Virus record (IMG/VR): IMGVR_UViG_3300033068_001989
Coordinates: 128,001-192,000 of that record
Direction: 5' to 3' (one strand)
DNA length: 64,000 nt
Origin: a virus
Taxonomy: Duplodnaviria; Caudoviricetes
Shown here: one piece after another, positions 47,916 through 63,103 of the stretch
Layout of the letters: each line of letters begins with the position of its first letter
Position numbering within the stretch: the first letter of the stretch is position 1
Position numbers and translations under genes: made by a program
Notes under the pieces: model-generated
The model's input: the letters and a program-made list of their open reading frames with translations, nothing else
Told to the model about the DNA's origin: nothing
Database searches by the model: none

Positions 47916-47918
47916 GTT

Positions 47919-48200: not shown

Positions 48201-48204
48201 ATAT

Positions 48205-48852: not shown

Positions 48853-48906
48853 CTCTATACCCTATTTTTATCTATATATCAAAAATAGGGTACGAAATCG
48901 CGGGCG

Positions 48907-48978
48907 TAGCCCGTAGGGGAATCGAACCCCTCTTACCAGGATGAAAACCTGGCGTCCTAACCGATAGACGAACGGGCC
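48907..48978 (-). tRNA. tRNA-Glu(TTC)
   Basis: Cloverleaf, CCAGG-TTTTCAT-CCTGG. Confidence 0.92.
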
Positions 48979-48983
48979 AAATT

Positions 48984-49129
48984 TAGGAAATAATGATGGA
49001 GTACCCGATATCGCTCCAATCTTTACTGCTTAATAATAGTTTTACAGTGCACCGGCAGAGGGTGTGTGAATCCTATAGAGCTGAAGGTGGCGTCGACACC
49101 TTGTCTTCAGCGGAAACCATTATTTCCTA
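48984..49129 (-). ncRNA. Unknown structured RNA
   Basis: 12-bp closing stem TAGGAAATAATG/CATTATTTCCTA with internal hairpins. Confidence 0.45.
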
Positions 49130-49777: not shown

Positions 49778-49831
49778 TTCTATACTTTAATTTAGATTAT
49801 GTATCTAAACTAAAGTACGAAATCGCGGCTG

Positions 49832-49905
49832 TGGTCCCTGTAGGGCTTGAACCTACGACCCCCTGATTATGAGTCAGGTGCTCTAACCAACTGAGCTAAG
49901 AGACC
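49832..49905 (-). tRNA. tRNA(CAT), probably Ile2 (reads ATA after lysidine modification)
   Basis: Cloverleaf, CCTGA-CTCATAA-TCAGG; Ile2 identity inferred from GGTCTCT acceptor and presence of separate fMet and Met genes. Confidence 0.75.
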
Positions 49906-49914
49906 GTTAATAAA

Positions 49915-50135
49915 AAAAGAAATATCCAAACCAATTTCACATCCCTTTACTCTTTGGTTTACCAGTCTTGCGGACTGTGCTGGTCATCTTCCGTTCTTTT
50001 CTCAAAATCTTTAGGTGTTCTTACTATCTCTATCAGATCACTGGGATTTTTGTTGAATTGAGTTTATTATGATCGGTCTATTGCGTCAGGGTATGGCAAC
50101 CAATAGACTTGTACCTCTCCAAAAATATTTCTTTT
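49915..50135 (-). ncRNA. Unknown ~220-nt structured RNA
   Basis: Closing stem AAAAGAAATAT/ATATTTCTTTT; internal hairpins; lies just after a promoter and boxA-like element. Confidence 0.45.
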
Positions 50136-50180
50136 AATTCTTTATGTTAATGAACGTTGTTTCTTTGTTTATTATTGTAT

Positions 50181-50214
50181 TGCAAAAGTATGATATTCTT
50201 TCGGGATAAAAAAA
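50181..50214 (-). promoter_or_regulatory. Early promoter inside array B
   Basis: TTTTTTTATCCCGAAAGAATATCATACTTTTGCA. Confidence 0.7.
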
Positions 50215-50267
50215 TTATTTTTGATATTTTTTTGAATTTTTTCAAAAATAATTTTTTATCACCTTTG

Positions 50268-50341
50268 CCGAGATAACGGGAATCGAACCCGTTTCGCACG
50301 CCGTGACAGGGCGGCATCCTTCGCCAGTGGACCTTACCTCG
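50268..50341 (-). tRNA. tRNA-Asp(GTC)
   Basis: CTGTCAC loop, ACGGG-TTCGATT-CCCGT. Confidence 0.8.
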
Positions 50342-50350
50342 AATATTTTG

Positions 50351-50440
50351 CGGAGGGTGAGGGGCTCGAACCCTCGCGACCTATCACTAGATCCTACCTG
50401 TTTAGCAAACAGGCCTCTTCACCAACTTGAGTAACCCTCC
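50351..50440 (-). tRNA. tRNA-Ser(GCT)
   Basis: Cloverleaf with long variable arm, G73. Confidence 0.92.
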
Positions 50441-50494
50441 GAATACAAGCCCAGAAAATTGCGCATGCTAGCAGAGGCGTTCTGGGAATTGTTG

Positions 50495-50581
50495 TACCCC
50501 GAGCCGGAGTCGAACCGGCACGCTCCTTTCGGAACACCAGATTTTAAGTCTGGGGCGTCTGACCATTTTCGCCATCGGGGC
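50495..50581 (-). tRNA. tRNA-Leu(TAA)
   Basis: CCAGA-CTTAAAA-TCTGG, long variable arm. Confidence 0.92.
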
Positions 50582-50588
50582 ATTAATT

Positions 50589-50680
50589 TGGTACAGATGG
50601 CGGGAATCGAACCCGCGTTTGATGCTATCTCAACAACCGCTACGAGTATAGAAGATATAAGCTTCCATCGGTACATCTGC
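50589..50680 (-). ncRNA. tRNA-like RNA without a D stem, CCA encoded
   Basis: GCAGATG/CATCTGT-ACCA, GCGGG-TTCGATT-CCCGC; irregular long hairpin in place of D and anticodon arms. Confidence 0.6.
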
Positions 50681-50688
50681 TAATTTTG

Positions 50689-50763
50689 GGTGACTGGTGG
50701 GGTTTGAACCCACGACCTCCTGAACCACAATCAGGCGTTCTAACCAGCTGAACTACAGCCACC
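50689..50763 (-). tRNA. tRNA-His(GTG)
   Basis: Cloverleaf with G-1 and C73. Confidence 0.92.
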
Positions 50764-50818
50764 ATGTTACGATCTATAAGGCCAGATCGTCAGCCAGTGC
50801 CTTCTCCCTAGGGAGATG

Positions 50819-51097
50819 CTATTTATTATCTCTATTTTTACCTAGATGATATCCGTCACAGAATATACATTTATAAACACTGAAATATTTACCATGTTTC
50901 CTTTGCATTGAATCTGCTGCCTTTCTTGCTGATTCCTTTGTTGGAAATCCCTGTTTTTCCTTTCCGTCCATTCTATAATGGCTTCTTTTATCAAATAATC
51001 CTAATGCATTACCTGTTATAAAGAAATTACGAAATGCTCTTTTTAAGGGAAGCTGATCCTTCAAACCAAGAATCAAATTCTTTAATTTAATTGGCAT
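50819..51097 (-). CDS. Hypothetical basic protein (CxxC..H)
   Basis: YKCIFCDGYHLG. Confidence 0.65.
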   Translation of the reverse strand: MPIKLKNLILGLKDQLPLKRAFRNFFITGNALGLFDKRSHYRMDGKEKQGFPTKESARKAADSMQRKHGKYFSVYKCIFCDGYHLGKNRDNK

Positions 51098-51533
51098 TTT
51101 CTTTTGTTTTATTAAATTCGTCCGCGGTTACTTTTTTTATCGGTGTAAATAAAGCGAACCCATCGTCGTCTTCGAAGTGATTGCATTTATCGATGAAATA
51201 GTTTCCCATCTTAAATCTCCAATATTCAAAAACGTTCATAGTTTCATTCCATCTTCCGATTTTACCTCTTCTATGATCACCTAGATAGAAAGCACCATCT
51301 TCGAGTTCATTCTTAGGTATTGCACCAGCTTTAATGAGTCTTGGTATATAGTATTCTTTATACTCCTTCTCGTTAACTTTTGGTATTTCTGGTACGTCTT
51401 GCGGAATTTTAAAAGTCTTAAGATTATCCCATCTTTTTCTTCTAAGCTCCTCAAAATTCTTTTTATCAATTTCCCTTTTTTCCTCAAGGAACTTTTTGAT
51501 CTGTTCGATTTTTTGTTTTTTGTCTGGTTCCAT
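51087..51533 (-). CDS. Hypothetical protein
   Basis: ORF within the tRNA array. Confidence 0.65.
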   Translation of the reverse strand: MEPDKKQKIEQIKKFLEEKREIDKKNFEELRRKRWDNLKTFKIPQDVPEIPKVNEKEYKEYYIPRLIKAGAIPKNELEDGAFYLGDHRRGKIGRWNETMNVFEYWRFKMGNYFIDKCNHFEDDDGFALFTPIKKVTADEFNKTKENAN

Positions 51534-51551
51534 GACTATGTTTTTAATTAG

Positions 51552-51634
51552 AGGTACCTGTCAGATTCGAACTGACGTGAGATTTCTCTAGCGGTTTTGC
51601 AGACCGCTCCTTTCAACCACTCAGGCAAGGTACC
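51552..51634 (-). tRNA. tRNA-Cys(GCA) with long variable arm
   Basis: GCGGT-CTGCAAA-ACCGC, U73, variable arm TAGAGAAATCTCAC. Confidence 0.85.
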
Positions 51635-51642
51635 GTGTTTAG

Positions 51643-51715
51643 AGCCTAAGACAGGGGTCGAACCTGCGACCTGCTGATTACAAATCAGCTGCTCTACCAA
51701 CTGAGCTACTTAGGC
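51643..51715 (-). tRNA. tRNA-Thr(TGT)
   Basis: Cloverleaf. Confidence 0.93.
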
Positions 51716-51723
51716 ATTTTTTG

Positions 51724-51809
51724 AGGAGACCAAGGGGATCGAACCCTATGCAGTTGCCCGCACCCGATGCTTTCCAGGCATGGACTATCACCGTTTAGTA
51801 TTGATCTCC
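51724..51809 (-). tRNA. tRNA-Ser(GGA), divergent
   Basis: ATGC-CTGGAAA-GCAT, long variable arm. Confidence 0.75.
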
Positions 51810-51923
51810 ATTGAGGGTTGACATATAGAATCTTTCCTATTTTCTGCGGTATAGGTACCATCATGGATTCCGTTGACCGATTCGTCTTTATAACCCCATA
51901 CGGAACAAGCAGGGTAACCTAAG

Positions 51924-52011
51924 CGGAGGGAGTGGGATTCGAACCCACGGGAGTAATTAGCTCACACAAGATTTCAAGTCTAGGCGCTTTTGACCACTTG
52001 CGCACCCCTCC
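51924..52011 (-). tRNA. tRNA-Ser(TGA)
   Basis: CTTGAAA loop, long variable arm, G73. Confidence 0.9.
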
Positions 52012-52042
52012 AATTTACTTTTACAATATTTCAATGAACAAT

Positions 52043-52075
52043 AAAAAAGGTCTCCTTTTTAGAGGAGACCTTTTT
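52043..52075 (-). terminator. Attenuator terminator upstream of tRNA array B
   Basis: GGTCTCCT-ctaaaa-AGGAGACC followed by T tract. Confidence 0.85.
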
Positions 52076-52097
52076 GATATTATTATATGTCTTAATA

Positions 52098-52190
52098 TCA
52101 ATACTCTCTCCTCATTACAATAGACGATTCACAAGTTGAACTCGTGTGATCTAAATGTAATGTATCTAATATGTACTGTATTTGTGACAT
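52098..52190 (-). CDS. Leader peptide B, 30 aa (MSQIQYILDTLHLDHTSSTCESSIVMRREY)
   Basis: Manual translation; A-rich initiation context; contains antiterminator GAGGAGA; codons match array B. Confidence 0.75.
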   Translation of the reverse strand: MSQIQYILDTLHLDHTSSTCESSIVMRREY

Positions 52191-52201
52191 GATTTTTATT
52201 T

Positions 52202-52272
52202 TTATAGATTTATATATCTAATTGATTTTAATATTTTATGCAAATTTAATGAAATGTTTCGAATAAAAAAAA
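52202..52272 (-). promoter_or_regulatory. Tandem early (TAAATTTG) and late-type (GATATATA) promoter block, copy B
   Basis: 52202-52248 is identical to 63034-63080. Confidence 0.8.
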
Positions 52273-52297
52273 TTATTTTTTATTTTTTTTTCAATAT

Positions 52298-52573
52298 TTA
52301 TTGAATTTCGTTTAATTGCTTAGGTATAAATTCACCAGTTTCTGTGATGTCTGCATATCTAGAAACAATATCACTCAATCCTCTTAGTAATTCCTCGAGG
52401 TTTTTTTCTTTTTCTGTTGGTCCATTTGTTGAACTGAAATTAGGTACAGCAATTTTTTGTTTAACTAATCTATCAAGATCAGATTTCAATTCATCAGCTA
52501 CGGATTTTTCATCACCGTAGAATTTTTCGTTAATTTCCGATTTATCAGAATCGTAATGTTTAAGATATCTCAT
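52298..52573 (-). CDS. Hypothetical, probable virion protein
   Basis: YLKHY..INE N-terminal motif. Confidence 0.55.
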   Translation of the reverse strand: MRYLKHYDSDKSEINEKFYGDEKSVADELKSDLDRLVKQKIAVPNFSSTNGPTEKEKNLEELLRGLSDIVSRYADITETGEFIPKQLNEIQ

Positions 52574-52578
52574 CCTTT

Positions 52579-54069
52579 TTATATAAATTTGAAGTCCTCG
52601 AGTGATCTAAGATACTCTAGATTGTAATTTTCCTTTAATTCCTTAATTTTCTTAGAATCTTTATCATCCACAATCGCAGGAACTGAATTTATTGTTTTTA
52701 ATCCAACCGATACTGCTTTCGGTAATGGTCCCATTAGTCCAGATGATGATAATTTATCTATAGTTTTTGAAGTTTTAGGATATTCCGTTGCTAAATCTCC
52801 TAAAAAATCTATCATTGGTTGAGCTATTGGTTTTATATAAGTTCCTACTAATTTCTTAATAACATCCAAAGCAGGTCCCAAGAAAGACTTAAATGCATTA
52901 GCTATTATTTTAGCAGCTGGTGTAACCGCAGATTTTATGAAATTTGATATTGCTTTTGAGAATTTTTCAGGAAGTGATATAAGGAATTGAAACAATTCTG
53001 ATATTTTTCCGCCAGCATAAATTATACCATCAAATACTTTACCTAAAAGGCCTTCACCGACCATCAGGAATATTGTCGATATTGTTGTCGCTGCAAGAGC
53101 AGATCCACCTGATCCCATTATCGCTCCGATGTTCTTTGCTGAATTTGCTCCAATTTTACCAACTAGTTTTGATGCTCCGTGTGCAAGAAAATGCTCTGTA
53201 CTATGAGCAAATTGTCCAGCAAATGTACCTGCCCATTTTTCGGAAGCTTTAAGAGATGCCGTGCTTGCTGCCGCTATACCAGGTATTGCTGCTTTTGGTG
53301 CCATTATAACATCATTTAGACCAAGTAAGATGGAACAAGAACCAGCTATTACTAGCGGTGCGCCGACAGCTAAACTTTTTTTGGTCTTTTCTAACTTGTT
53401 CATTTCAATTTCGGATAGATGTGACCACGCTTTTTTCATTTTATATACACCTATTCCTATTTCAATTGCACCTGCAATTCCAAGTAGAACCGGACCTAAT
53501 ATCTGACCAGCTGCTGGTATTAAGGGTGTAACTGCTGCAGTCATCTGTAGTACTATTGCTACTGTTGTCCAAAAATTTGAGCTAGTTGTTATTTCTTTTA
53601 TAGCAGATACTATTCTTTTTGTAAATTTCCAAACTCTTTTTGCACCATCGGATATACTATTCCATATATTTGCACTCTTAGATTTAACTAAATCCACTGC
53701 TGATTTAGCATTAGATTTAACTTTATCCCAAGCTGCTGACATATCGTCAAGAATTCCTTCATTTATAGCATGCATCGTATAATTATCGATTATAAATGCT
53801 GATCCATTTTTAAATAAAACCGTTCCACTATCACTCTCAAGCATCAATATCTTCTCATCATCGTTGAACCAGTCTTTCTTATTCTCGTAAAGCATTCCTA
53901 ATTCGTACATAGCATACGATTTTTCCAATAGCATCTCCTCGGACTCAGATTCAAATACCTTAGATTCAAACATATTAGAAAATTCTGGCAATGTTAATTT
54001 CACCATTATGTCTTCACTTAACTTTCCGAAATTGCTCGAGGAAAGAAATCCATCATATTTATTAATCAT
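52579..54069 (-). CDS. Hypothetical virion protein with hydrophobic Gly/Ala helices
   Basis: Several FE/INE motifs in the N-terminus; membrane-like segments. Confidence 0.6.
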   Translation of the reverse strand: MINKYDGFLSSSNFGKLSEDIMVKLTLPEFSNMFESKVFESESEEMLLEKSYAMYELGMLYENKKDWFNDDEKILMLESDSGTVLFKNGSAFIIDNYTMHAINEGILDDMSAAWDKVKSNAKSAVDLVKSKSANIWNSISDGAKRVWKFTKRIVSAIKEITTSSNFWTTVAIVLQMTAAVTPLIPAAGQILGPVLLGIAGAIEIGIGVYKMKKAWSHLSEIEMNKLEKTKKSLAVGAPLVIAGSCSILLGLNDVIMAPKAAIPGIAAASTASLKASEKWAGTFAGQFAHSTEHFLAHGASKLVGKIGANSAKNIGAIMGSGGSALAATTISTIFLMVGEGLLGKVFDGIIYAGGKISELFQFLISLPEKFSKAISNFIKSAVTPAAKIIANAFKSFLGPALDVIKKLVGTYIKPIAQPMIDFLGDLATEYPKTSKTIDKLSSSGLMGPLPKAVSVGLKTINSVPAIVDDKDSKKIKELKENYNLEYLRSLEDFKFI

Positions 54070-54112
54070 TTTATAGATTTTTTTCTTTTATATATCCAAA
54101 TTACAAACAACA

Positions 54113-54140
54113 AAAAAGCCATTCTATATGAATGGCTTTT
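54113..54140 (-). terminator. Intrinsic terminator after Ro60
   Basis: AAAGCCATTC/GAATGGCTTT followed by T tract. Confidence 0.75.
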
Positions 54141-54160
54141 ATAATTTATGCAAAATATTA

Positions 54161-55741
54161 TTAGATAACAATAGCTTCGATTTCTCTTAAAATCGCTTTT
54201 GGATCGATCTCAGCTTTTTTGATCATCTCGTAGATATCAGCAGAGTAACCAAAAAGTTGAACTAATTTGTTACCTGGTTTGAACATGGTTGTACCATATC
54301 CTTGAATATCAACAGTGTAGATGAAAGGTTCGCCATGTGCAGATTTGTAGGATTGGAAAGAACTGTTTGTAACGATTCTATCACCACCTTGTAAATCTGA
54401 TATGATGAAGATACGATCATATTTACCGCTTTTTTGTAAAGTTGAGAAGATTGAGCCGAAGTCAGTACCATGACCAACTCTACCTTGCAAACTTAAACAT
54501 GTATTTTTGATCGTATTGATGCTATCGCCAGGATTGTATCTGATACCTTCTGTTGTTGTCGCAAATTGGTATAAATCTGCACCGATACCTTTTGCTAACG
54601 TTGCTCCAATAAGAGCAGCTTTATCAATACAATGTTTGTTTATAGCTTTACCATTCATGGTAACTCCATGTCCCATTCCGTGCATAGATCCAGATGTATC
54701 AATAACAACCGCTGTTCTGCCATGTGAGAATAATTCGAGCAAGTTTGGTATTGCTAATTCGTAAGCTCTATTCAAAGCAGTAACGAATGGTCTAGACGCA
54801 GAAGCACTAGTTTCTTGTAAAAGAATCTCCAAAGCAATATCTATTTGGTGAGGAAAGACCAAAGATTTTCTGATCAATTTCTCATCGATTAAAAGCTCAC
54901 ACGCACCACTAACTAATTCAGAATTTGAACTTGTGTTGATGATGTTTCTTAAATTACGAAGCAATGCCAAGTAACCAATTTTTCTAGTTTTAATCAATTC
55001 AGCATAGTTGCTTTCTTTAGCTTGTGTCAATTCAACCTCTGCTTGGGCTTTAGTGATTTCACCGGATTTAACTTTTGCAGCAACTTCCTGTCCTGATTTT
55101 GTGTTTTTGTCCTCGACAGTGTTGAATTGTTTTAACTTACCAGTCATAAGTTCTTTGAAAACCCCCTCCATTTGTGGTGTTGTTGGTTTTGGACGAACCA
55201 AGTTAACAACATCAACAAGTGAAACTGCTTTCCCTTTACCTTGATATTTAGCTAATTCGTATGCATCTGCTGATTCTAAAGCTGCTTTAAAGCCTTTCTT
55301 CATTGAGTTAGGTAATGGTTTACCAGGATTGAAGTGTTGGTAAGCTGCGATAATCTCCAATACGTCATCTAAACGGTATATAATACCACCAGTTTTAGCA
55401 TTCTTATCTCTTTTTGAGAAGAATCTTCTACCTATAGCTGATCCGGATAAATGTTTAACTAATGATACAGATCCGAAATGTGTTACTGATCTTTGACCAA
55501 CAACAGTTCTCGCGTATACAAGAGCTTTAGCAACGAATTCGATATCTTTCTTGGACAATTCGTCGATAAGTTGAACAAATCTGTTCTCTCTATCTGATAA
55601 TTTTTCATAGTATGAATTATCCAATCCTGTGGTAAGAATAGCAATTAATTCTAATTTTGGATCATACTTCACACCGGTACCACCTTGATGGTTTGTAACT
55701 GTCTCAACAGTTCTTTTTACTTTTTGATTGTAACGTGACAT
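54161..55741 (-). CDS. Ro60/TROVE RNA-binding protein
   Basis: YELAKY, ALLRNLRN, FPHQI TROVE motifs; C-terminal vWA MIDAS DTSGSM..GTD..ISD. Confidence 0.9.
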   Translation of the reverse strand: MSRYNQKVKRTVETVTNHQGGTGVKYDPKLELIAILTTGLDNSYYEKLSDRENRFVQLIDELSKKDIEFVAKALVYARTVVGQRSVTHFGSVSLVKHLSGSAIGRRFFSKRDKNAKTGGIIYRLDDVLEIIAAYQHFNPGKPLPNSMKKGFKAALESADAYELAKYQGKGKAVSLVDVVNLVRPKPTTPQMEGVFKELMTGKLKQFNTVEDKNTKSGQEVAAKVKSGEITKAQAEVELTQAKESNYAELIKTRKIGYLALLRNLRNIINTSSNSELVSGACELLIDEKLIRKSLVFPHQIDIALEILLQETSASASRPFVTALNRAYELAIPNLLELFSHGRTAVVIDTSGSMHGMGHGVTMNGKAINKHCIDKAALIGATLAKGIGADLYQFATTTEGIRYNPGDSINTIKNTCLSLQGRVGHGTDFGSIFSTLQKSGKYDRIFIISDLQGGDRIVTNSSFQSYKSAHGEPFIYTVDIQGYGTTMFKPGNKLVQLFGYSADIYEMIKKAEIDPKAILREIEAIVI

Positions 55742-55770
55742 GATTATAATTGTTTATTCGTTTATATTAT

Positions 55771-55967
55771 AAAATTGAGTTATCGGAAAGATAAAGCATA
55801 TAGACTAGGTCAAATGCAAGATCAACGTCAAAGACCTTCTTCTATTGCAAAGACAATGACAAAAACTAAGTCTCTTTCGCTAGCCAATTATCTGCCTAGT
55901 GGTAAAGATTTCTCTTTCTCTATGGCTTTCAGTAACTTGTCTAGCTATTGAGTTCTATCTCAGTTTT
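55771..55967 (-). ncRNA. Candidate structured RNA with hexamer-periodic tract
   Basis: Closing stem AAAACTGAG/CTCAATTTT; GTTTTT-GTCATT-GTCTTT..GTCTTT-GACGTT-GATCTT-GCATTT. Confidence 0.4.
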
Positions 55968-56157
55968 ATTTATTTTTATAGAAGAAGCGGAGTGATGAGA
56001 GTTCCCGAAGGATCCTCTCTGATTGCTGTATATGATTAATAGTCATTTATCTTATAAGATAATGGCCAGGAGCCATTAATTAAAGGACTTTATCTCTCCG
56101 AATCAAAGCATCAGGGGAATCGGCTTTTGCTTACCCCTTCAGCACCTCAATTTATTT

Positions 56158-57081
56158 TTATTTTTCTAGTTGTTTCAAAAATTCATCAACAACTGGTTGG
56201 AATCTAGGATCAATCTGAATCTTAAGATTTACAGCTTCACCGATTCTATTTTGACGCTCTGTTTCAAAATCAAGACTTGCTTTCTTGTAGTTTGCTAACC
56301 AAGCTTCTCTCTTTTTTGTGTATTCGTTCATCGCTAGTGAATTCTTTTCATTAGCTTCTGCTTGAGCATCAGCATTGATTTTAGAAATCCTTGCATTTTC
56401 CTTAGTTACAGCATTCTTAACCTTCGATTTGAAATAATTAACTCTTTGCTCGTAACTTCTATGAAGAGCTGCCAACTCTTCGTGTGTTTTTAACAACTCC
56501 TCAGGTTTGTGATGCACATTAACTTTAATAGGAGTTTTCTTTCCTGTTTCGATTTCCATAAACTCAAGAAGCTGAATTTTAGGTAATTCTGATCTCAGAC
56601 GATCTAATGTTCCACCCTTATGAATAAATTGTCCTATATGTGAAGCATAAGCCTCCGCCTCGATGAATTCGTTATATTCATCAATTGTTAGTTGATTCCA
56701 GCCCCAATCCTCTGCAACTTGTACCAGAACTTCAGGTTGAATATTAGGTTCTCTTTCAGGTGAAGGATTTTGATCCTCATAATCAAAATATTCTCTCTTG
56801 ATTCCGTTTATCAATTCGTCTTTGGCTTTTATATTCTCCATTAGAAAAGCCTGTGTTGCATGCAACCTTGCTTTACTTTTAAGAAGTTCAACAACATCTT
56901 TAGGTAAAGGTTTTGCAGCGGTTAAATTGTGATCCTCTTTGGATATCCTTATCGTTTTTGATGCGTTATTAATATCTGCTAAAGCTGCAGTAATATCCTT
57001 TGATCTTTGGTTACAAAGATTCGATATAGATTGAGCTTGAGACATTGATAATCCTTTTGATGCTAATGAATTTCTTTTCAT
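56158..57081 (-). CDS. Conserved-looking coiled-coil protein upstream of Ro60
   Basis: 307-aa helical ORF with A.HIGQFIH motif. Confidence 0.7.
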   Translation of the reverse strand: MKRNSLASKGLSMSQAQSISNLCNQRSKDITAALADINNASKTIRISKEDHNLTAAKPLPKDVVELLKSKARLHATQAFLMENIKAKDELINGIKREYFDYEDQNPSPEREPNIQPEVLVQVAEDWGWNQLTIDEYNEFIEAEAYASHIGQFIHKGGTLDRLRSELPKIQLLEFMEIETGKKTPIKVNVHHKPEELLKTHEELAALHRSYEQRVNYFKSKVKNAVTKENARISKINADAQAEANEKNSLAMNEYTKKREAWLANYKKASLDFETERQNRIGEAVNLKIQIDPRFQPVVDEFLKQLEK

Positions 57082-57125
57082 GATTTCTAATTTTTGTTTT
57101 TATATTTTACTTTAAATTTCTACAA

Positions 57126-57165
57126 TAAAAAAGGGATTAAGTCGCTTGGCGTCCTAATCCCTTTA
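57126..57165 (-). terminator. Terminator ending array A and the Y-like cluster
   Basis: AAAGGGATTA/TAATCCCTTT followed by T tract. Confidence 0.7.
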
Positions 57166-57173
57166 TAAAACTA

Positions 57174-57314
57174 ACAGAGAATGATGTAAGAAGTGTGAAC
57201 AATTTAATGTCTGATTTTCATTCAGATGACTTAACCACTTGTCTAAATTTCCAGTTTAGCGGAAACTATCGGAGTCGAACCGATGTGCGATGTAACTTCT
57301 ATACTTACTACTGT
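57174..57314 (-). ncRNA. Y-RNA-like circularly permuted tRNA (break in variable loop, anticodon GAA)
   Basis: Order is T arm, closed acceptor (AGTTTCC/GGAAATT), D arm, anticodon arm TCTGA-ATGAAAA-TCAGA, all inside the shared module. Confidence 0.78.
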
Positions 57315-57322
57315 CGTATGTT

Positions 57323-57482
57323 TTATAAGGGAATGATGTAAATAGCGTTTTTTCTAACGTGCTCTACCAACTGAGCTATTCCCCCCAAATTTTTAATTTG
57401 TTTAGTGGGGGAAGATGGATTCGAACCACCGACACCGTGCTTTCAATGCATACGAAGTAACTATTTTACTGACCACTTATAA
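57323..57482 (-). ncRNA. YrlA-like RNA (T-acceptor-D order, module on anticodon stem)
   Basis: GGTGG-TTCGAAT-CCATC, TTCCCCC/GGGGGAA closed by a linker, GCTC-AGTTGGTA-GAGC; module AAGTGGTCA..GTTACTTCG/CATTCCCTT. Confidence 0.8.
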
Positions 57483-57490
57483 TATGTTTT

Positions 57491-57625
57491 TTGTAAGGGA
57501 ATGTTCGGGTGAGTTTCAATGGATGTTTTTGCTGGAGTTGAACCAGCTACCTAAAGTTTAAGAGACTCTCGCTCTACCAAGTGAGCTAAAAAACGAAGTA
57601 ACTCATATTCCGTTACCACTTACAA
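57491..57625 (-). ncRNA. Y-RNA-like tRNA chimera (module on acceptor stem, anticodon CTT)
   Basis: D, anticodon (AGAGT-CTCTTAA-ACTTT) and T arms enclosed by the module. Confidence 0.78.
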
Positions 57626-57711
57626 TAATACTTTTTCAATGAACGTTTTGTGATTTTTATATGGAGGGAAATCCTCTTTGTTTCATAAAAATCAATATTT
57701 TTTTAAAATTT

Positions 57712-57877
57712 AACGATCTTAGAGATATTGGGAAGGGAATGTTTAGAAAGGGATGCTAATAGTTTTTGCGGGAGTTGAACCCGCGACCTTAAATACCAAA
57801 AATTTACGCCCTACCAACTGGGCTAAAAAACGAAGTAACCTTTCAATTTACCACTAACCAATATTTCTAAGAACGTT
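57712..57877 (-). ncRNA. Y-RNA-like tRNA chimera (module on acceptor stem, anticodon TTG)
   Basis: D, anticodon (TAAAT-TTTTGGT-ATTTA) and T arms enclosed by the module plus a long basal stem. Confidence 0.78.
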
Positions 57878-57881
57878 TTTG

Positions 57882-57955
57882 TAGGCAAGGAGAGACTCGA
57901 ACTCTCGACCTTCGCGGTATCAGCGCGACGCTCTAACCAACTGAGCTACCTGCCT
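57882..57955 (-). tRNA. tRNA-Ile(GAT)
   Basis: Cloverleaf. Confidence 0.92.
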
Positions 57956-57966
57956 ATTTTATTTCG

Positions 57967-58037
57967 AGATCCCGGAGGGATTCGAACCCCCGTCTTCAGA
58001 TCCGTATTCTGAAATTCTTCCGCTGAACTACGGGACC
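57967..58037 (-). tRNA. tRNA-Arg(ACG)
   Basis: TCAGA-ATACGGA-TCTGA. Confidence 0.85.
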
Positions 58038-58041
58038 TTAT

Positions 58042-58209
58042 TTAATTCTCTGCGCCTCCATCTACAAGTAGCAATAAATGTGTTTATCCTTTCGCTGAAT
58101 CGCCCTATAGACTCAGTTGCAGCTAATCAGCACTTAGATACCGCCTTCCTTTCTCACGGATTAAGGTTACACTTTGGAAATTCACCTCTACGGACACACA
58201 GAGAACTAA
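58042..58209 (-). ncRNA. Unknown ~165-nt structured RNA
   Basis: Closing stem TTAGTTCTCTGTGT/GCGCAGAGAATTAA. Confidence 0.45.
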
Positions 58210-58212
58210 TTC

Positions 58213-58386
58213 TTATAATCTGTTTCGAAGAATCTCTATCTCCTTGTTAAGTCTTTTGATATCAGAATCGCTCAAATCGACTTTTTTATCTCTTGTACCT
58301 TTTTCGGTTTTAACGCCGCTTTTCAATTGTTCCTCCAACATAGACAATGCTCTTGCTTGTCTAGATCTTCTTTGGGTTGTTGCCAT
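58213..58386 (-). CDS. Small early protein, 57 aa (MATTQRRSRQ...ILRNRL)
   Basis: Manual translation; directly downstream of the promoter at 58410; below the ORF-track cutoff. Confidence 0.65.
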   Translation of the reverse strand: MATTQRRSRQARALSMLEEQLKSGVKTEKGTRDKKVDLSDSDIKRLNKEIEILRNRL

Positions 58387-58409
58387 TTTTGTATGTTTAA
58401 TTATTATGA

Positions 58410-58443
58410 TGCAAATATATGATATCCTTTCGAGATAAAAAAA
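58410..58443 (-). promoter_or_regulatory. Early promoter
   Basis: TTTTTTTATCTCGAAAGGATATCATATATTTGCA. Confidence 0.72.
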
Positions 58444-58905
58444 TTAATTTGCAATTTTTTCAATAATAATTTCCTTAACCTTAACTGGACTCGCCATACC
58501 TGGAAACTTTTTATTAAAAGCACCGATAACTTTACCTGTTAAAACCTGTGCATTTAATCCAAGACCATCCATTTCTGAAAGTAGTTCCATAACAGCGGAT
58601 GTTATTTCTGAATCCTCCATTTGTTTAGGAAGATAAGATTCAATCGGTTTCAACTCAGCTGTTTCTTGTTCTACAAGATCCATTCTTCCGGCCTTTGTGA
58701 ATTCCTCTACTGATTGTTTTCTTTGTTTGATTGTGCTTATAACAATCTTTAAAACATCAGCATCACTAAGCTCTGTTCCAGCTGGACCAGCTTTCTCAGC
58801 TTCTAGTATTTTGGACTTCAGACCACTTAAAGCACTTTTTGCTACTGTGTCTTTTGATTTGAATGCTGTAATATAATCAGCATTGATTTTCTCCTTTAGT
58901 GTCAT
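58444..58905 (-). CDS. GatB/YqeY domain protein (start at MTLKEK)
   Basis: LKEKINAD..AFKSKD..KQRKQS.E.F.KAGR.DL..E..E....YLPKQM. Confidence 0.85.
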   Translation of the reverse strand: MTLKEKINADYITAFKSKDTVAKSALSGLKSKILEAEKAGPAGTELSDADVLKIVISTIKQRKQSVEEFTKAGRMDLVEQETAELKPIESYLPKQMEDSEITSAVMELLSEMDGLGLNAQVLTGKVIGAFNKKFPGMASPVKVKEIIIEKIAN

Positions 58906-58920
58906 GTTTTCAATTTTTAG

Positions 58921-58989
58921 TGGAATATTGGGACTCGAACCCTGCCTCCCACTGTTTAGTGGTTGCACATCCGCTTGTGCTTTTATCCC
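58921..58989 (-). pseudogene. Degenerate tRNA-like element
   Basis: GGGATA/TATTCC acceptor, GCAC/GTGC D stem, TTCGAGT loop; anticodon loop not 7 nt. Confidence 0.5.
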
Positions 58990-59053
58990 GTGGCCGGGGT
59001 TTATGGATATTTCTTAATCACCTCCAATGGGCCGACCCTTGGTGACAAATTAT

Positions 59054-59443
59054 TTAGATTGCTCCTTCTCCGCCACTTATGAAATATAGGACTGATCTAA
59101 TATTTCTCTGTTCGTTACCTAGAGCTTCTATCTTAATTCTTTTCTCCTGTACGGATCTCTGTGTTTTAGCAAGATCTGTCTTAGCAACAATCAATTCATA
59201 ATTGTCTGCAGTTTTTTCAACAAAAGCAGCATCTCTTGCCTCTGCATTACTGTAAGCCTTTTTACCAGCACCGTCTACAGTAGCACCTATCTCAGCTTTA
59301 ATTACAGATTCAATCTGCGTAATCTTCTCTGATTGAGATTGAGATGTTTCTGTTAATGTTAATAGCTCCAACTGGGCTTCAACAATCTTTGCCGGAATCT
59401 CCAATAATCTATTAGCTAATGATTCCAATCTTTCCTTGTCCAT
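59054..59443 (-). CDS. Hypothetical coiled-coil protein
   Basis: GKKAYSNAEARDA motif, helical. Confidence 0.7.
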   Translation of the reverse strand: MDKERLESLANRLLEIPAKIVEAQLELLTLTETSQSQSEKITQIESVIKAEIGATVDGAGKKAYSNAEARDAAFVEKTADNYELIVAKTDLAKTQRSVQEKRIKIEALGNEQRNIRSVLYFISGGEGAI

Positions 59444-59464
59444 TTCGAAATGTTTAAAAATTAG

Positions 59465-59554
59465 TGATCAGAACAGGAATCGAACCTGTGCTCTGCCGAA
59501 GATACCCCGATTTCTCGGATCGACGACCAAATACTCCCACTATATCATCTGATC
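59465..59554 (-). ncRNA. tRNA-like RNA with extended anticodon arm ending in a GAAA tetraloop
   Basis: GATCAGA/TCTGATC-A, D stem, ACAGG-TTCGATT-CCTGT. Confidence 0.6.
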
Positions 59555-59649
59555 AATTTCATTTGAAGCTCACAAAAGACCCAACTTTAAGCTCAAAAAT
59601 GCTCGAAATTGAGCTTCATTTTGAGTTTTTGTGAGCTTCATTTCCTATT

Positions 59650-59842
59650 GAGATCCAATTCAGACTTTAGACCGCTACTAACACCCTTATTCCATACCCT
59701 CGGGATCTGATGTGAAGGAATCGAACCTTCCTAGAGCCGTCGCTCCATACTCAGAATAACATCTATTCCCTACTCTTTGGTGATGACTTTCGTCTGTTCA
59801 TCTTATTCCTCCTTTTTTATTCTTTCGAACTAATTGGATCTC
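59650..59842 (-). ncRNA. Unknown ~190-nt RNA containing an isolated T arm
   Basis: 11-bp closing stem GAGATCCAATT/AATTGGATCTC; GAAGG-TTCGATT-CCTTC. Confidence 0.5.
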
Positions 59843-59845
59843 TTG

Positions 59846-59920
59846 TGATTCCTGTAGGATTCGAACCTACGACCCTCTCGGTGTAAACGAGATGCTCTGA
59901 ACCAACTGAGCTAAGGAACC
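59846..59920 (-). tRNA. tRNA-Val(TAC)
   Basis: Cloverleaf. Confidence 0.93.
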
Positions 59921-59942
59921 AGTTGCTGATATTTATATCAGG

Positions 59943-60536
59943 CTATTTTATTTTCTTATTTTTTGGAGCTTCCACTTTGGATGAGAATATCTCTTTTACA
60001 CTTCCGTCATGATAGAATATTCTAGCATCAGGATAGGTACATCCATATTGATCAGCCATTACCTGTGCATAATCTTCTATGGTATTAAGCTTAATTAATC
60101 CTTCGATTATTTTTGATCCGTATTTTTCTCCTATCTCTGGGATTTTGATCCATTCCATGTCAGAGTATCTTTCAAGTAATACCTTCAATTCATCTTCAGC
60201 ACTTAAACCATATCCACTAATCCATCTTTCAACCGGATATCTACCATCTTTTTCTTGAGTCATTGAAGTTATATCTATGGAATGAGATCCATACCAACGA
60301 TCACCACAACATTCACAATCCATGCCCTCATCAACACCATTCCAATAGCATCCGAGATCTTCAGCGATAGAATCTGCTTCAGCTGAGCTCCTTGCTTCTA
60401 TGAATAATCTGTGACATAATTTATCATCTGTCACAAAAGAACCTCCTGAGTTGTTTTGTGAGATTTCATAAAATTTTAAGCTACCGTCTTCTTTTCTTTT
60501 CATTTTTATGTTTTTAGAAATAGATCCATCCTGCAC
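59943..60536 (-). CDS. Hypothetical phage protein (QNNSGGSF..DCECCGDRW)
   Basis: Cys motif typical of phage hypothetical proteins; start probably MKRKED. Confidence 0.7.
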   Translation of the reverse strand: MQDGSISKNIKMKRKEDGSLKFYEISQNNSGGSFVTDDKLCHRLFIEARSSAEADSIAEDLGCYWNGVDEGMDCECCGDRWYGSHSIDITSMTQEKDGRYPVERWISGYGLSAEDELKVLLERYSDMEWIKIPEIGEKYGSKIIEGLIKLNTIEDYAQVMADQYGCTYPDARIFYHDGSVKEIFSSKVEAPKNKKIK

Positions 60537-60744
60537 ATCTCTTTGGATATTTTGATGAGAAATCTATGAAATCTGGATCCTCACCTCTGATGAATTTATG
60601 AATTGATACATTTTCTTTTGTCCTGTTTGCTTTATTAAATTGTCTAACAAAATCACTGGGAACGTTGCACCAGTAGTTATATCTACCCGGTGTGTGTCTT
60701 CTTCTTTGTGCTTCGGTCCAAGACCATCTCTTTTTTGTTTTCAT
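60514..60744 (-). CDS. Hypothetical small basic protein
   Basis: ORF in array orientation. Confidence 0.55.
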   Translation of the reverse strand: MKTKKRWSWTEAQRRRHTPGRYNYWCNVPSDFVRQFNKANRTKENVSIHKFIRGEDPDFIDFSSKYPKRCAGWIYF

Positions 60745-60804
60745 TTTGTATTAGGTTATTTTACCTAATACATGTCGAATTTCTTTTTCATATTTAATTA
60801 TTTG

Positions 60805-60877
60805 TGGAGCTGATGGGATTCGAACCCACATCCTCCTCCGTGCAAGGGAGGCGCTCAGCCAGTTGAGCTACAGCCCC
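60805..60877 (-). tRNA. tRNA-Ala(TGC)
   Basis: G3-U70 pair, cloverleaf. Confidence 0.93.
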
Positions 60878-60885
60878 AAATTTTG

Positions 60886-60959
60886 TAGCGAGAGTGGGTT
60901 TCGAACCCACGACCTCCGGGTTATGATTCCAGCGCTCTGACCATCTGAGCTATCTCGCC
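60886..60959 (-). tRNA. tRNA-Met(CAT), elongator
   Basis: GGCGAGA acceptor, ATCATAA loop. Confidence 0.85.
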
Positions 60960-60999
60960 AATTCATAGACCTTAATAGAACCTATGAAAACAATCATTT

Positions 61000-61233
61000 T
61001 TACTGGTGATGTTTGACATATCTGCCAAACCTATCAACTCTAACCTCCATCTTAGTGAGGTTAAAATTCCAGTTTTGAAAAACACCCAAGCCAGATCTTT
61101 GTCTTGCTTGTTTAATAGCAGATTGCTCTGCCTTTTCGCGACCTTCTTCCGTAGTCTCTACGAAAAAAGTGGGAGCCTGAACACCAGTCTTACTGGTAGG
61201 AACTACTCTCCAAATTCTCAAATTTTGAGTCAT
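61000..61233 (-). CDS. Hypothetical protein flanked by a 14-bp inverted repeat
   Basis: 77-aa ORF. Confidence 0.6.
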   Translation of the reverse strand: MTQNLRIWRVVPTSKTGVQAPTFFVETTEEGREKAEQSAIKQARQRSGLGVFQNWNFNLTKMEVRVDRFGRYVKHHQ

Positions 61234-61305
61234 AATATTTAGCTAATAGCTAAAACTATGTTGAGTCGATGATTGTTTTCATGTTCTTAATTTATTTTAA
61301 TTTTG

Positions 61306-61378
61306 AGCAGAAGACGGGACTCGAACCCGCAACAACCTGCTTGGAAGGCAGGAGCTCTACCAATTGAGCTACTTCTGC
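61306..61378 (-). tRNA. tRNA-Gly(TCC)
   Basis: Cloverleaf. Confidence 0.93.
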
Positions 61379-61422
61379 ATGGAGCCGGCACGATGATTCA
61401 ATCGTGGATCTTCCGGAATGTG

Positions 61423-61495
61423 AGCGATAGACCGGGGTCGAACCGGCGACCTTTGCCTTGGCAAGGCAACGCTCTACCAACTGAGCTACTATCGC
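61423..61495 (-). tRNA. tRNA-Gly(GCC)
   Basis: Cloverleaf. Confidence 0.93.
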
Positions 61496-61586
61496 ATGAT
61501 CGGGTAGCGTCGAACTAAGTTTAATGTTAGTCCTATACCCGCTGGTTACATTTCCACGAAGGAAAGAGGCTTTACCAGGCACCCTG

Positions 61587-61658
61587 AGGGCAGAGTGGGA
61601 TTCGAACCCACGACCAGTTGATTAACAGTCAACTGCTCTACCGCTGAGCTATCCACCC
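61587..61658 (-). tRNA. tRNA-Asn(GTT)
   Basis: GTTGA-CTGTTAA-TCAAC; acceptor and discriminator (U73) atypical for Asn. Confidence 0.85.
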
Positions 61659-61713
61659 TTTTTAATCTTAGTTATTGCTAATGGATAAGTTTCCTTATAC
61701 TATTGGATATTTG

Positions 61714-61786
61714 TGGGACCGGGCGGGATCGAACCGCCATCATCGGATTTTCAGTCCGCTGCATAGACCAACTTTGCTACAGTCCC
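61714..61786 (-). tRNA. tRNA-Phe(GAA)
   Basis: CGGA-CTGAAAA-TCCG. Confidence 0.88.
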
Positions 61787-61799
61787 TTTTTTATTTTTG

Positions 61800-61873
61800 C
61801 TCTTCTGACTGGATTCGAACCAGCAACCCCAGGTTTAACAAACCTTCGCTCTGACCGTTGGAGCTACAGAAGA
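61800..61873 (-). tRNA. tRNA-Asn(GTT)
   Basis: U1-A72, G73, TTGTTAA loop. Confidence 0.88.
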
Positions 61874-61879
61874 ATGTTG

Positions 61880-61990
61880 TGGAGTAGCTGGAATTGAACC
61901 ACGCTATCTGGGATAAGTACTAATAGTCTTACTCTTGCTATCTAGAATCTGAAGCAGACCCTATCAGACATTTCCCAGCCCTTTTACTCC
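61880..61990 (-). ncRNA. tRNA-like RNA without a D arm and with a large central insert
   Basis: GGAGTA/TACTCC-A, TTCAATT T loop, CTGGGA/TCCCAG enclosing ~60 nt. Confidence 0.55.
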
Positions 61991-61995
61991 GTTTG

Positions 61996-62077
61996 TGCCA
62001 GCAGAGGGACTCGAACCCCCGAACCCTTAAGGGAACAGATTTACAGTCTGCAGTAATTGCCGCTATACGATACTGGC
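61996..62077 (-). tRNA. tRNA-Tyr(GTA)
   Basis: Cloverleaf with variable arm. Confidence 0.9.
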
Positions 62078-62082
62078 TTTTG

Positions 62083-62156
62083 TGACCCCGATGGGACTCG
62101 AACCCATGACTCCCTCATTAAAAGTGAGGTGCTCTAGCCAGCTGAGCTACGAGGTC
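62083..62156 (-). tRNA. tRNA-Lys(TTT)
   Basis: Cloverleaf. Confidence 0.93.
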
Positions 62157-62267
62157 ATTATAATAAAGTTGTTTTTGTTTAATAAACCTGCCTGGTTTAT
62201 TATGATTTTTCAACTTTAGTGTATTGATTTAGTTTCCGTTATGCCAAAGATCATATTTTTTTAACAT

Positions 62268-62301
62268 TGCAAATATATGAAATGCTTTCGAATTAAAAAA
62301 A
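62268..62301 (-). promoter_or_regulatory. Early promoter inside array A
   Basis: TTTTTTTAATTCGAAAGCATTTCATATATTTGCA. Confidence 0.72.
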
Positions 62302-62330
62302 TATTTTTTTAATTATTTTTTTAATTTTTG

Positions 62331-62401
62331 TTGGGATACCAGGATTCGAACCTGGAATAACTGGACCAAAACCAGTTGTGTTACCGTTACACCATATCCC
62401 A
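62331..62401 (-). tRNA. tRNA-Gln(TTG)
   Basis: Cloverleaf, U1-A72. Confidence 0.92.
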
Positions 62402-62410
62402 TTAAATTTG

Positions 62411-62481
62411 CACGGACTGGAGGATTCGAACCTTCATCGTCGGTTTTGGAGACCGGTATGCTACCATTGCACCAAGCCCGT
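62411..62481 (-). tRNA. tRNA-Trp(CCA)
   Basis: CTCCAAA loop, G73. Confidence 0.9.
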
Positions 62482-62485
62482 GTGT

Positions 62486-62713
62486 TTATCTGGTTGCTTT
62501 ATGAAACTCGTTATTATCTAAAGCCTTCCTGATGTACCTCATAAAGAAGATGGCATTATCTTCTGCTAACAATGTTGCTTCTCCTATATCATTCAATCTA
62601 ACAGGAAATGTGTGATCCGAACCATCAACGAAAACGTTGTAATAAGCGATGTCATTCTTTAGATGTGAAAATCTAACTTTGTTGTCTTTTACGATTTCTT
62701 TTATTGTTGCCAT
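62486..62713 (-). CDS. Hypothetical phage protein
   Basis: FPV..DIGEATLLAE..AIFFMRYIRK. Confidence 0.7.
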   Translation of the reverse strand: MATIKEIVKDNKVRFSHLKNDIAYYNVFVDGSDHTFPVRLNDIGEATLLAEDNAIFFMRYIRKALDNNEFHKATR

Positions 62714-62729
62714 TTTGTTTATTTATTTG

Positions 62730-62805
62730 TCGGGATACAGAGACTCGAACTCTGATGATGTCCTGCTCCCAAAGCAGGCGACTTAGCCAATTAGTCCACA
62801 TCCCG
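62730..62805 (-). tRNA. tRNA-Pro(TGG)
   Basis: C1-G72, A73, TTTGGGA loop. Confidence 0.92.
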
Positions 62806-62824
62806 TTAATTTTAATTTCAGTCC

Positions 62825-62863
62825 AAAAAAAAACTCCAGATCTTTTAAGATCTGGAGTAAAAA
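62825..62863 (-). terminator. Attenuator terminator upstream of tRNA array A
   Basis: ACTCCAGATCT-taaa-AGATCTGGAGT followed by long T tract. Confidence 0.88.
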
Positions 62864-62893
62864 TATTTAATGCTTATTTGACTAGTTCTTACA

Positions 62894-63022
62894 TTAAATT
62901 ATATCGTGACCTCCAGATCCCTTGCTGTACCCATTATACCATTTGGCAATGCCCACCTGATTAAAGGGTGCAACGCTCTGCGGCATAAACGGTTTTACAT
63001 TATTTCGGAAAGTTGTTTTCAT
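62894..63022 (-). CDS. Leader peptide A, 42 aa (MKTTFRNNVKPFMPQSVAPFNQVGIAKWYNGYSKGSGGHDII)
   Basis: Manual translation; A-rich initiation context; contains antiterminator GATCTGGAG; codons match array A. Confidence 0.78.
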   Translation of the reverse strand: MKTTFRNNVKPFMPQSVAPFNQVGIAKWYNGYSKGSGGHDII

Positions 63023-63033
63023 TGTTTTTTAAA

Positions 63034-63103
63034 TTATAGATTTATATATCTAATTGATTTTAATATTTTATGCAAATTTATGGAAAAGTTTCGAATAAAA
63101 AAA
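63034..63103 (-). promoter_or_regulatory. Tandem early and late-type promoter block, copy A
   Basis: 63034-63080 is identical to 52202-52248. Confidence 0.8.

Follow-up and report, generated by a model that had tools for sequence, protein, structure and literature searches.

Codon-matched leader open reading frames as putative transcription attenuators of two tRNA arrays in a Caudoviricetes phage

The 207,751-bp contig of IMG/VR virus record IMGVR_UViG_3300033068_001989 (Duplodnaviria; Caudoviricetes; 34% G+C) contains 34 tRNA genes, every one of them on the minus strand, in three groups that are designated arrays A, B, and C. The stretch analyzed here, referred to as the window, comprises 64,000 nucleotides (nt) of this record (positions 128,001 to 192,000), and coordinates are positions in the window unless stated otherwise. 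Arrays A and B begin with the same minus-strand layout: a promoter block, a short open reading frame (ORF), an intrinsic terminator, and then the tRNA genes. For simplicity the regions preceding the two arrays are referred to as leaders A and B in subsequent discussion. The original prediction for these loci was that ribosomes translating each short ORF control, by attenuation, transcription of the tRNA genes that follow. In a computational evaluation, permutation tests of codon composition, comparisons of homologous loci, and comparisons of phages in which tRNA genes have changed arrays supported this interpretation, with exceptions that are described below.

The leader A ORF (P0001; 62894 to 63022, minus strand) has 42 codons plus a stop codon, and the leader B ORF (P0002; 52098 to 52190, minus strand) has 30 codons plus a stop codon. 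The intrinsic terminator of leader A (62825 to 62857, minus strand; stem at 62834 to 62857) consists of a 10-bp stem and a 4-nt loop, followed by nine T residues. The leader B terminator (52044 to 52075, minus strand) has a T run after a stem of 13 bp, A-U pairs included. The only other strong minus-strand terminator between 47 and 64 kb is at 54114 to 54140. The first tRNA of each array begins 20 to 35 nt past the T run, with no room for a further promoter.

The promoter blocks of the two units share exactly 47 identical nt, at 52202 to 52248 and at 63034 to 63080, and the 38-nt core of this shared block has only these two copies in the 207,751-bp genome. Despite the shared block, the ORFs and terminators of leaders A and B are unrelated in sequence. 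A motif scan identified a host-type promoter of repeat family D5 ahead of leader A (63058 to 63100, minus strand), made up of an A/T-rich stretch, TTCGAAAC, and then a Bacteroidota-type -7 box, TAAATTTG. This promoter is kept in all relatives, and a promoter of the same family precedes leader B (52226 to 52268, minus strand). The hosts are very likely Bacteroidota because of this promoter type and because a gene in a relative encodes a type IX secretion system (T9SS) sorting domain. Inside the 47-nt block of each unit is a phage-type promoter-like motif, GATATATAA (63042 to 63050 for leader A and 52210 to 52218 for leader B, both minus strand). The genome has 23 copies of this motif. Of these, 21 are on the coding strand, and most lie 3 to 28 nt upstream of an ATG; another copy in the window is at 54096. 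It precedes every leader A and every leader B in all lineages. Its distribution suggests that GATATATAA is probably a phage-specific (middle or late) promoter element giving very short 5' untranslated regions. A small hairpin in the shared 5' region was considered as an untranslated-region element and was dropped, as its conserved core is GATATATAA itself, which is found before some twenty other genes.

The end of each ORF can pair with the 5' arm of its own terminator. Coordinates, folding, and shuffled controls thus confirmed the layout originally described for these loci, in which a 47-bp block is followed by a short ORF missing from the ORF list, a terminator with which the end of that ORF can pair, and the tRNA genes. 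The alternative pairing was found by folding the leaders up to the terminator loop, and the position of a ribosome was modeled by removing the RNA that it would cover. The pairing segment of leader A (region 2; 62910 to 62922, minus strand) lies in codons 34 to 38 and forms an 11-bp duplex of -18.2 kcal/mol with the terminator arm, and none of 300 shuffled sequences did as well. The corresponding segment of leader B (52106 to 52114, minus strand; codons 26 to 29) forms a 7-bp duplex of -12.1 kcal/mol, which was matched by 2% of shuffles. Computationally, each leader has an antiterminator that excludes the terminator and overlaps the ORF. The antiterminator persists for ribosome positions up to approximately codon 30 in leader A and codon 22 in leader B and is lost beyond them. 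The run of codons that match the array downstream, which is described below, ends at codon 32 in leader A and codon 23 in leader B, close to the limit at which a stalled ribosome begins to cover region 2 and the antiterminator is lost.

Both pairings are conserved among related phages. In every lineage a T run follows the terminator stem, the energy of which is -15 to -18 kcal/mol. In 12 versions of leader A and 4 versions of leader B, the best partner for the 5' arm of the terminator across the whole upstream leader was at the same relative place, in the tail of the ORF (codons ~34 to 38 of 40 to 42 in leader A versions and the last 3 to 6 codons in leader B versions). The antiterminator energies in the relatives are similar to those of the terminators and mostly beat those of shuffled sequences, though both partners vary in sequence; the antiterminator of lineage L035 is weak. 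In lineages L033, L041, and G001, changes in the leader B antiterminator are accompanied by matching changes in the terminator. RNAalifold analysis of truncated leaders gave the same helix as the consensus, with compensatory changes that include one pair changed from U-A to C-G in several sequences. Both leaders in the window also have an A/U hairpin in the stretch from the stop codon to the terminator, which was dropped as a candidate element because distant relatives do not conserve it.

The relatives came from several searches. Exact-motif scans of viral and metagenome contigs recovered 13 distinct leader A and 7 distinct leader B sequences from close relatives. A word-indexed protein search recovered close homologues of leader A in nine clusters that are 71 to 88% identical, and a profile search of 1.84 billion proteins recovered distant homologues that are just 45 to 60% identical. 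No relative was found among 50,697 isolated phage records, in which a megablast search with the region and a tblastn search with leader A returned only tRNA matches and noise. Short-motif scan matches in L017, L020-L022, L043, and L047 were discarded as chance.

Wherever flanking DNA was available for a distant leader A homologue, the homologue was directly upstream of a terminator and a tRNA array of the same amino acid set. The gene order within the array varies among the distant relatives, with Phe first in several of them. Divergent versions of leader B precede the second array in four lineages. The distant loci all keep the ORF, the terminator, the position of the antiterminator, and the match between codons and array. 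This retention of the leader, the terminator, and a same-set array in distant homologues indicates, from sequence comparison, that the tRNAs were divided long ago into sets A and B, each headed by a separate leader, and that this division has been conserved.

The pattern of sequence change in the ORFs is that of coding sequence. Leader A homologues have 40 to 45 codons, with conserved start and stop codons, and their insertions and deletions come in threes, preserving the frame. Among the distant lineages synonymous sites are near saturation, with synonymous differences per site (pS) of 0.55 to 0.59. The ratio of nonsynonymous to synonymous differences per site (pN/pS) is 0.36 to 0.39 in codons 5 to 31 and 0.99 in the tail, a contrast indicating RNA-like evolution of the tail and coding-type evolution of the central zone. 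The same leader B peptide occurs in all 7 distinct sequences from close relatives, and all four variable sites in its ORF are synonymous (P = 0.0016, with 20% of possible changes being synonymous).

Array A (57520 to 62805, minus strand) consists, in order, of tRNA genes for Pro, Trp, Gln, Lys, Tyr, Asn, Phe, Asn, and Gly (two), a Met-like CAT tRNA, genes for Ala and Val-TAC, one without an assigned identity, and genes for Arg-ACG, Ile-GAT, Gln, and Lys-CTT. Array B (47618 to 52011, minus strand) consists of Ser-TGA, Ser-GGA, Thr, Cys, His, one tRNA-like gene without an assigned identity, Leu-TAA, Ser-GCT, Asp, an Ile2-like CAT tRNA, Glu, Val-CAC, Asp, and an initiator-like CAT tRNA. The three CAT tRNAs appear to be of different kinds. 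The gene at 47618 to 47690 is initiator-like, with a mismatched 1:72 pair and a GGG/CCC anticodon stem; the gene at 49831 to 49905 is Ile2-like; and the gene at 60885 to 60959 is elongator-Met-like. The presence of the Ile2-like tRNA in array B fits the two ATA codons of leader B. Array C (Arg-TCT, Leu-TAG, and Leu-GAG; minus strand) is just past the end of the window, at genome positions 193150 to 193460. It has no leader: upstream of it are a small gene, lipoprotein-like and with abundant Thr, Val, and Asp repeats, then a terminator, and then a plain host-type promoter. The tRNAs listed in the original prediction are all present, and that list was incomplete. It omitted Val-CAC, the second Asp, and the initiator-like CAT tRNA of array B, Lys-CTT and the second Gln of array A, the two tRNA-like genes without an assignment, and the leaderless array C.

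The 91-nt tRNA-like gene of array A (59464 to 59554, minus strand) scored 39 bits with the Rfam tRNA model and received no anticodon from ARAGORN; its identity could extend or break the amino acid partition. The codon usage of the genome is itself unusual. ATA makes up 5.3% of codons, far more than ATT (2.0%) and ATC (0.9%), and the CGN codons together account for 0.17%, yet the phage encodes tRNA-Arg-ACG.

The codons of each leader match the array that follows it. Codons were assigned to arrays with standard wobble rules. Leader A has 32 array A codons versus 8 array B codons, and leader B has 20 array B, 6 array A, and 2 array C codons (Fisher p = 7.9e-6). The enrichment for each leader relative to the codon usage of 174 long ORFs had p values of ~5e-4 to 8e-4. 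An empirical control consisted of the 627 ATG-initiated ORFs of 25 to 60 codons that the genome contains in its six reading frames. Leader B was the most B-rich of these 627 ORFs and had the longest run of B codons, 17 (codons 7 to 23); no other ORF reached 12. In leader A the run of A codons was the longest, and just one other ORF also reached 80% A codons. Random codon strings of equal length seldom covered all the tRNA species of the leader's own array (P = 0.0017 for leader B and 0.00095 for leader A). The tests of leader codon composition that the original prediction had proposed were strongly significant. Its amino acid statements also hold: leader A lacks Leu, Cys, and Glu; leader B lacks Pro, Trp, Lys, Asn, Phe, Gly, and Ala; and each leader has every amino acid of its own array.

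The codons that do not belong to the leader's own class are located at both ends of each ORF, leaving a codon-matched zone of approximately codons 5 to 32 in leader A and codons 6 to 23 in leader B. Off-class first codons can be attributed to the A-rich start expected in Bacteroidota, and off-class last codons to the need to pair with the terminator. The zone of leader A also favors rare synonymous codons (p < 5e-5). Rare codons there could slow decoding and sharpen a sensor, and constraints of RNA structure could be an alternative cause.

Substitutions in leader A stay within its class of amino acids. In 19 aligned peptides, 47 of the 54 distinct non-consensus residues in the zone are among the 13 amino acids of array A, whereas BLOSUM62 exchange expectations give 31.9 (p = 5e-6). 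This class is not a physicochemical one: Ile, Val, Met, and Phe are in it and Leu is out, and Asn, Gln, Lys, and Arg are in it and Ser, Thr, Asp, Glu, and His are out. The off-class residues T3, T4, and S16 of leader A in the window are invariant in the close clade, and distant homologues have Asn, Lys, Gln, Ala, Phe, or Gly instead.

When the codons of relatives were classified with each phage's own arrays, the match was again evident. For example, 35 of the 40 codons of leader A in L033 belong to array A only, the exceptions being two ATG codons and three codons in the tail. For leader B, own-array codons form runs of 18 in L033 and L041, and codons 6 to 22 of leader B in G001 are all for amino acids whose tRNAs are in array B of that phage. 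The content of the leader B zone also varies with the content of array B. Array B in the window has Leu-TAA and neither Leu-TAG nor a Gly tRNA, and its leader zone has TTA as the only Leu codon and no Gly codon. L033, which has both Leu-TAA and Leu-TAG in array B, has CTA and CTC in addition to TTA/TTG and is the only lineage with CTN codons in the zone. L041/L042, with Gly-TCC in array B, are the only ones with a GGG codon in the middle of the zone. In G001 there is no Leu tRNA in array B, Leu-TAA being in array C with the other Leu tRNAs, and there is no Leu codon in the zone of leader B. The suggestion that leader codons should move with tRNAs between arrays was thus borne out in leader B for Leu-TAA, Leu-TAG, and Gly-TCC and failed for Ile2 in L033.

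We consider it likely that both units are ribosome-mediated transcription attenuators that sense the capacity to decode the codons that each array serves. Transcription would start at the tandem promoter, with its one host-type and one phage-type element, and the leader ORF would be translated while RNA polymerase proceeds. A ribosome that quickly reached the end of the ORF would cover region 2, so that the terminator would form and transcription would stop a few dozen bases before the first tRNA. A ribosome delayed in the central zone would leave region 2 free to pair with the terminator arm, and the polymerase would enter the array. Leader translation, the direction of the switch, and tRNA shortage as its signal are what we infer from this arrangement. 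The switch would report the summed decoding speed of the codon set in the zone, with host and phage tRNAs acting together. A zone written in the array's own codons would create negative feedback on the supply of that tRNA set; the phage would probably step up production of a tRNA set only during slow decoding of its codons by ribosomes. By analogy with known defense systems, anticodon nucleases are one possible trigger. A more tentative extension is that the leaders may serve as inducible counter-defense sensors, in which a codon checklist would detect the loss of any one tRNA species, whether to host anticodon nucleases or to phage-driven decay of host RNA, and the replacement array would be the answer. 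The core of the leader A peptide might in that case also act as a nascent-peptide element that tunes how long the ribosome dwells at the end of the ORF.

Several observations weigh against attenuation by decoding speed, or limit its reach. Copies of the host-type promoter within the arrays (50168 to 50231, 58397 to 58460, and 62255 to 62318), which have no leader, terminator, or GATATATAA, can supply distal tRNAs without passage through an attenuator. The original prediction rightly cautioned that such promoters could bypass the leaders. As a consequence, complete dependence on the attenuators would be limited to the proximal tRNAs, namely, Pro, Trp, and Gln in array A and Ser to Asp in array B. 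A trp-like anti-antiterminator (1:2) hairpin was sought, and region 2 had no conserved or significant upstream partner. Without a conserved anti-antiterminator, untranslated transcripts should read through. Based on this modeled geometry, loss of the leader start codon should yield constitutive read-through and not loss of read-through, which corrects the refuting condition set with the original prediction. In addition, a ribosome on the stop codon of leader A would cover just the 3' end of region 2.

The codon match itself has imperfections. Most tRNAs are sampled by just 1 to 3 codons, whereas classical attenuators have runs of regulatory codons. Residues assigned to the opposite array are T3, T4, and S16 in leader A and Q3, Q5, and Y6 in leader B. 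Only this genome has the CGA codon, which fits Arg-ACG, with AGA or AGT in its place in relatives. Statistical support for the covariation between leaders and arrays is in the predicted direction and modest, with three of four variable tRNAs matching the pattern exactly in four lineages (p ~0.05, from a rough count). Leader B of L033 retains two ATA codons and the Ile2-like tRNA of that phage is in array C; leader A of L033 retains an internal ATG with no Met tRNA in array A; leader A of G001 retains two Ala codons with no Ala tRNA found in 20 kb of arrays; and leader A of L041 retains three Gly codons in the zone with no Gly tRNA found in its array A. Leader A also has a core that is conserved position by position around an invariant A-K-W-Y, more than a codon checklist would need. 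This conservation leaves room for a nascent-peptide role.

It is conceivable, if rather unlikely, that the attenuators are real and report another signal, such as ribosome availability, the rate of translation, or a nascent (stalling) peptide, with the codon match being secondary. The leader A core, conserved by position despite synonymous saturation (pS of ~0.55 to 0.59 and pN/pS of 0.36), would fit this possibility, as would the few codons that sample each tRNA and the invariance of T3, T4, and S16, which are off-array codons, within the close clade. However, a general sensor gives no reason to expect two leaders whose codon sets complement each other and match the two arrays, substitutions confined to the amino acid class of the array, or the gain and loss of Leu and Gly codons by leader B along with its array. 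Furthermore, leader B has no comparable conserved peptide core across lineages.

We regard as improbable the simpler proposal that the ORFs are ordinary small-protein genes, or the units small RNAs, with ordinary terminators, the tRNAs being transcribed by leaky read-through and from internal promoters and the codon bias reflecting coincidence or peptide function. The peptides are conserved, strong promoters of this type also precede ordinary genes, internal promoters are present, and the full-length leader RNAs of the two units fold well (z = -3.5 and -6.4), all of which such genes could account for. This proposal would nevertheless leave unexplained why the best partner of the terminator arm is always in the ORF tail, with covariation, why pN/pS in that tail is neutral, and why both ORFs have an extreme rank among 627 small ORFs for the correct array. 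The first tRNAs, starting 20 to 35 nt past the T run, have no promoter of their own, and neither leader peptide had a Pfam match. Least probable, and highly doubtful in our view, is that the units are timing devices separating early tRNA expression by the host polymerase from late expression at the phage promoter, with a phage antitermination factor and not ribosome position overcoming the terminator. The tandem host-type and phage-type motifs in the shared 47-nt block invite this explanation, and the identity of the block in both units suggests a common trans-acting input. However, no antiterminator protein or nut-like element was identified, and a timing device could operate without an ORF, its coding-type conservation, or the codon match.

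The arrays have further features that stand apart from the leaders. Array A is interspersed with small protein genes and contains two of the internal host-type promoters. One of its genes (58444 to 58968, minus strand) encodes a YqeY-like protein (GatB/YqeY domain; Pfam, 3.5e-31), and the listed start of this ORF overlaps sequence resembling a tRNA T-arm; relative L036 also has a YqeY gene in its array. The distal part of array A in relatives includes a tRNA with the anticodon TTA, which is ochre-suppressor-like (L001, 6254 to 6328; L048, reverse-complemented, 8593 to 8665), and ARAGORN found none in the window. Array B contains one internal host-type promoter and two GIY-YIG endonuclease genes. 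The latter (48205 to 48852 and 49127 to 49777, both minus strand) are paralogous SegE-like homing-endonuclease genes that have a common 300-nt repeat with 78% identity. In a distant relative a transfer-messenger RNA is located between two tRNA blocks (L037, 4148 to 4589; L038, 2937 to 3378), the place at which leader B sits in other lineages. Between arrays A and B in the window is a gene for a TROVE/Ro60-like protein (Pfam TROVE, 3.6e-10). Near it are a weak match to YrlA, a Y RNA-like RNA (31.8 bits; threshold, 69), and several tRNA-like pieces that ARAGORN did not call, one of which, at 50592 to 50680, encodes a CCA end. The sites listed for this gene, the YrlA match, and the tRNA-like pieces are 54161 to 55741 (minus strand), 57355 to 57438 (minus strand), 48131 to 48200, 57196 to 57252, and 50592 to 50680.

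Leader-peptide attenuation is a textbook mechanism for the control of amino acid biosynthesis operons and one synthetase operon, in which one to three amino acids are sensed. The leaders of enterobacterial amino acid operons include trpL, hisL, leuL, and pheL and the multivalent leaders of ilvGMEDA and thr. Attenuators of this kind have been modeled (PMC1183508). The two phage units resemble the enterobacterial attenuators in having a short leader ORF, which is presumably translated, an intrinsic terminator, an antiterminator that would depend on ribosome position, and cognate regulatory codons; the ilv and thr leaders, sensing two or three amino acids, are a multivalent precedent. The differences are also substantial. 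The regulated genes are tRNAs and not biosynthetic enzymes, and the leaders sample 10 to 14 tRNA species, mostly 1 to 3 times each, with no single-codon runs. There is no conserved 1:2 anti-antiterminator hairpin, a trp-type feature that is not universal to the class. Furthermore, the element is viral, in a Bacteroidota-type host, and has no Shine-Dalgarno sequence. None of the curated Rfam leader families was found at the gathering threshold, the single match being Phe_leader at 52041 to 52114 (30.8 bits versus 55).

The pheST attenuator of Escherichia coli is similar in that a component of the decoding apparatus is adjusted upon slow decoding of cognate codons, but it responds to a single amino acid, by means of a run of Phe codons, and the genes that it regulates encode a synthetase instead of tRNAs. 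T-box riboswitches, known from Gram-positive bacteria, also switch between terminator and antiterminator according to the state of a specific tRNA and provide feedback on the tRNA charging machinery. In contrast to the phage leaders, T-box riboswitches recognize uncharged tRNA by direct binding, with no translation involved, carry a specifier loop and a T-box sequence, and do not control tRNA genes; Rfam searches of the region returned no T-box match.

Phage tRNAs can replace host tRNAs cut by defense nucleases, as described for retron effectors (PMC11555353), PARIS (PMC11464382), and OLD (PMC12445682). These studies provide a biological reason for a phage to monitor and restore tRNA species. 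The phage tRNAs in those systems are constitutively expressed, and neither sensing nor attenuation of tRNA genes is described there. A full-text literature search found no description of the attenuation of tRNA genes in phages or in cells. Early sequencing papers on the tRNA region of phage T5 reportedly mention short ORFs between tRNA genes.

Judged from their sequences, the two units appear to have the anatomy of leader-peptide attenuators, including the terminator, the antiterminator, and cognate codons in a new many-codon form, save for the trp-type 1:2 hairpin. If this interpretation is correct, they would be the first case to be described in which decoding speed governs the transcription of tRNA genes through feedback, and each leader would sample at least ten tRNA species. 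Such control would account for the division of tRNAs in large phages among blocks whose amino acid sets do not overlap. It would also provide an experimental handle on why phages carry tRNAs at all, whether to compensate for codon usage, to replace degraded host tRNAs, or to escape anticodon nucleases, and the leaders would be compact natural elements with which to report the capacity to decode defined sets of codons.

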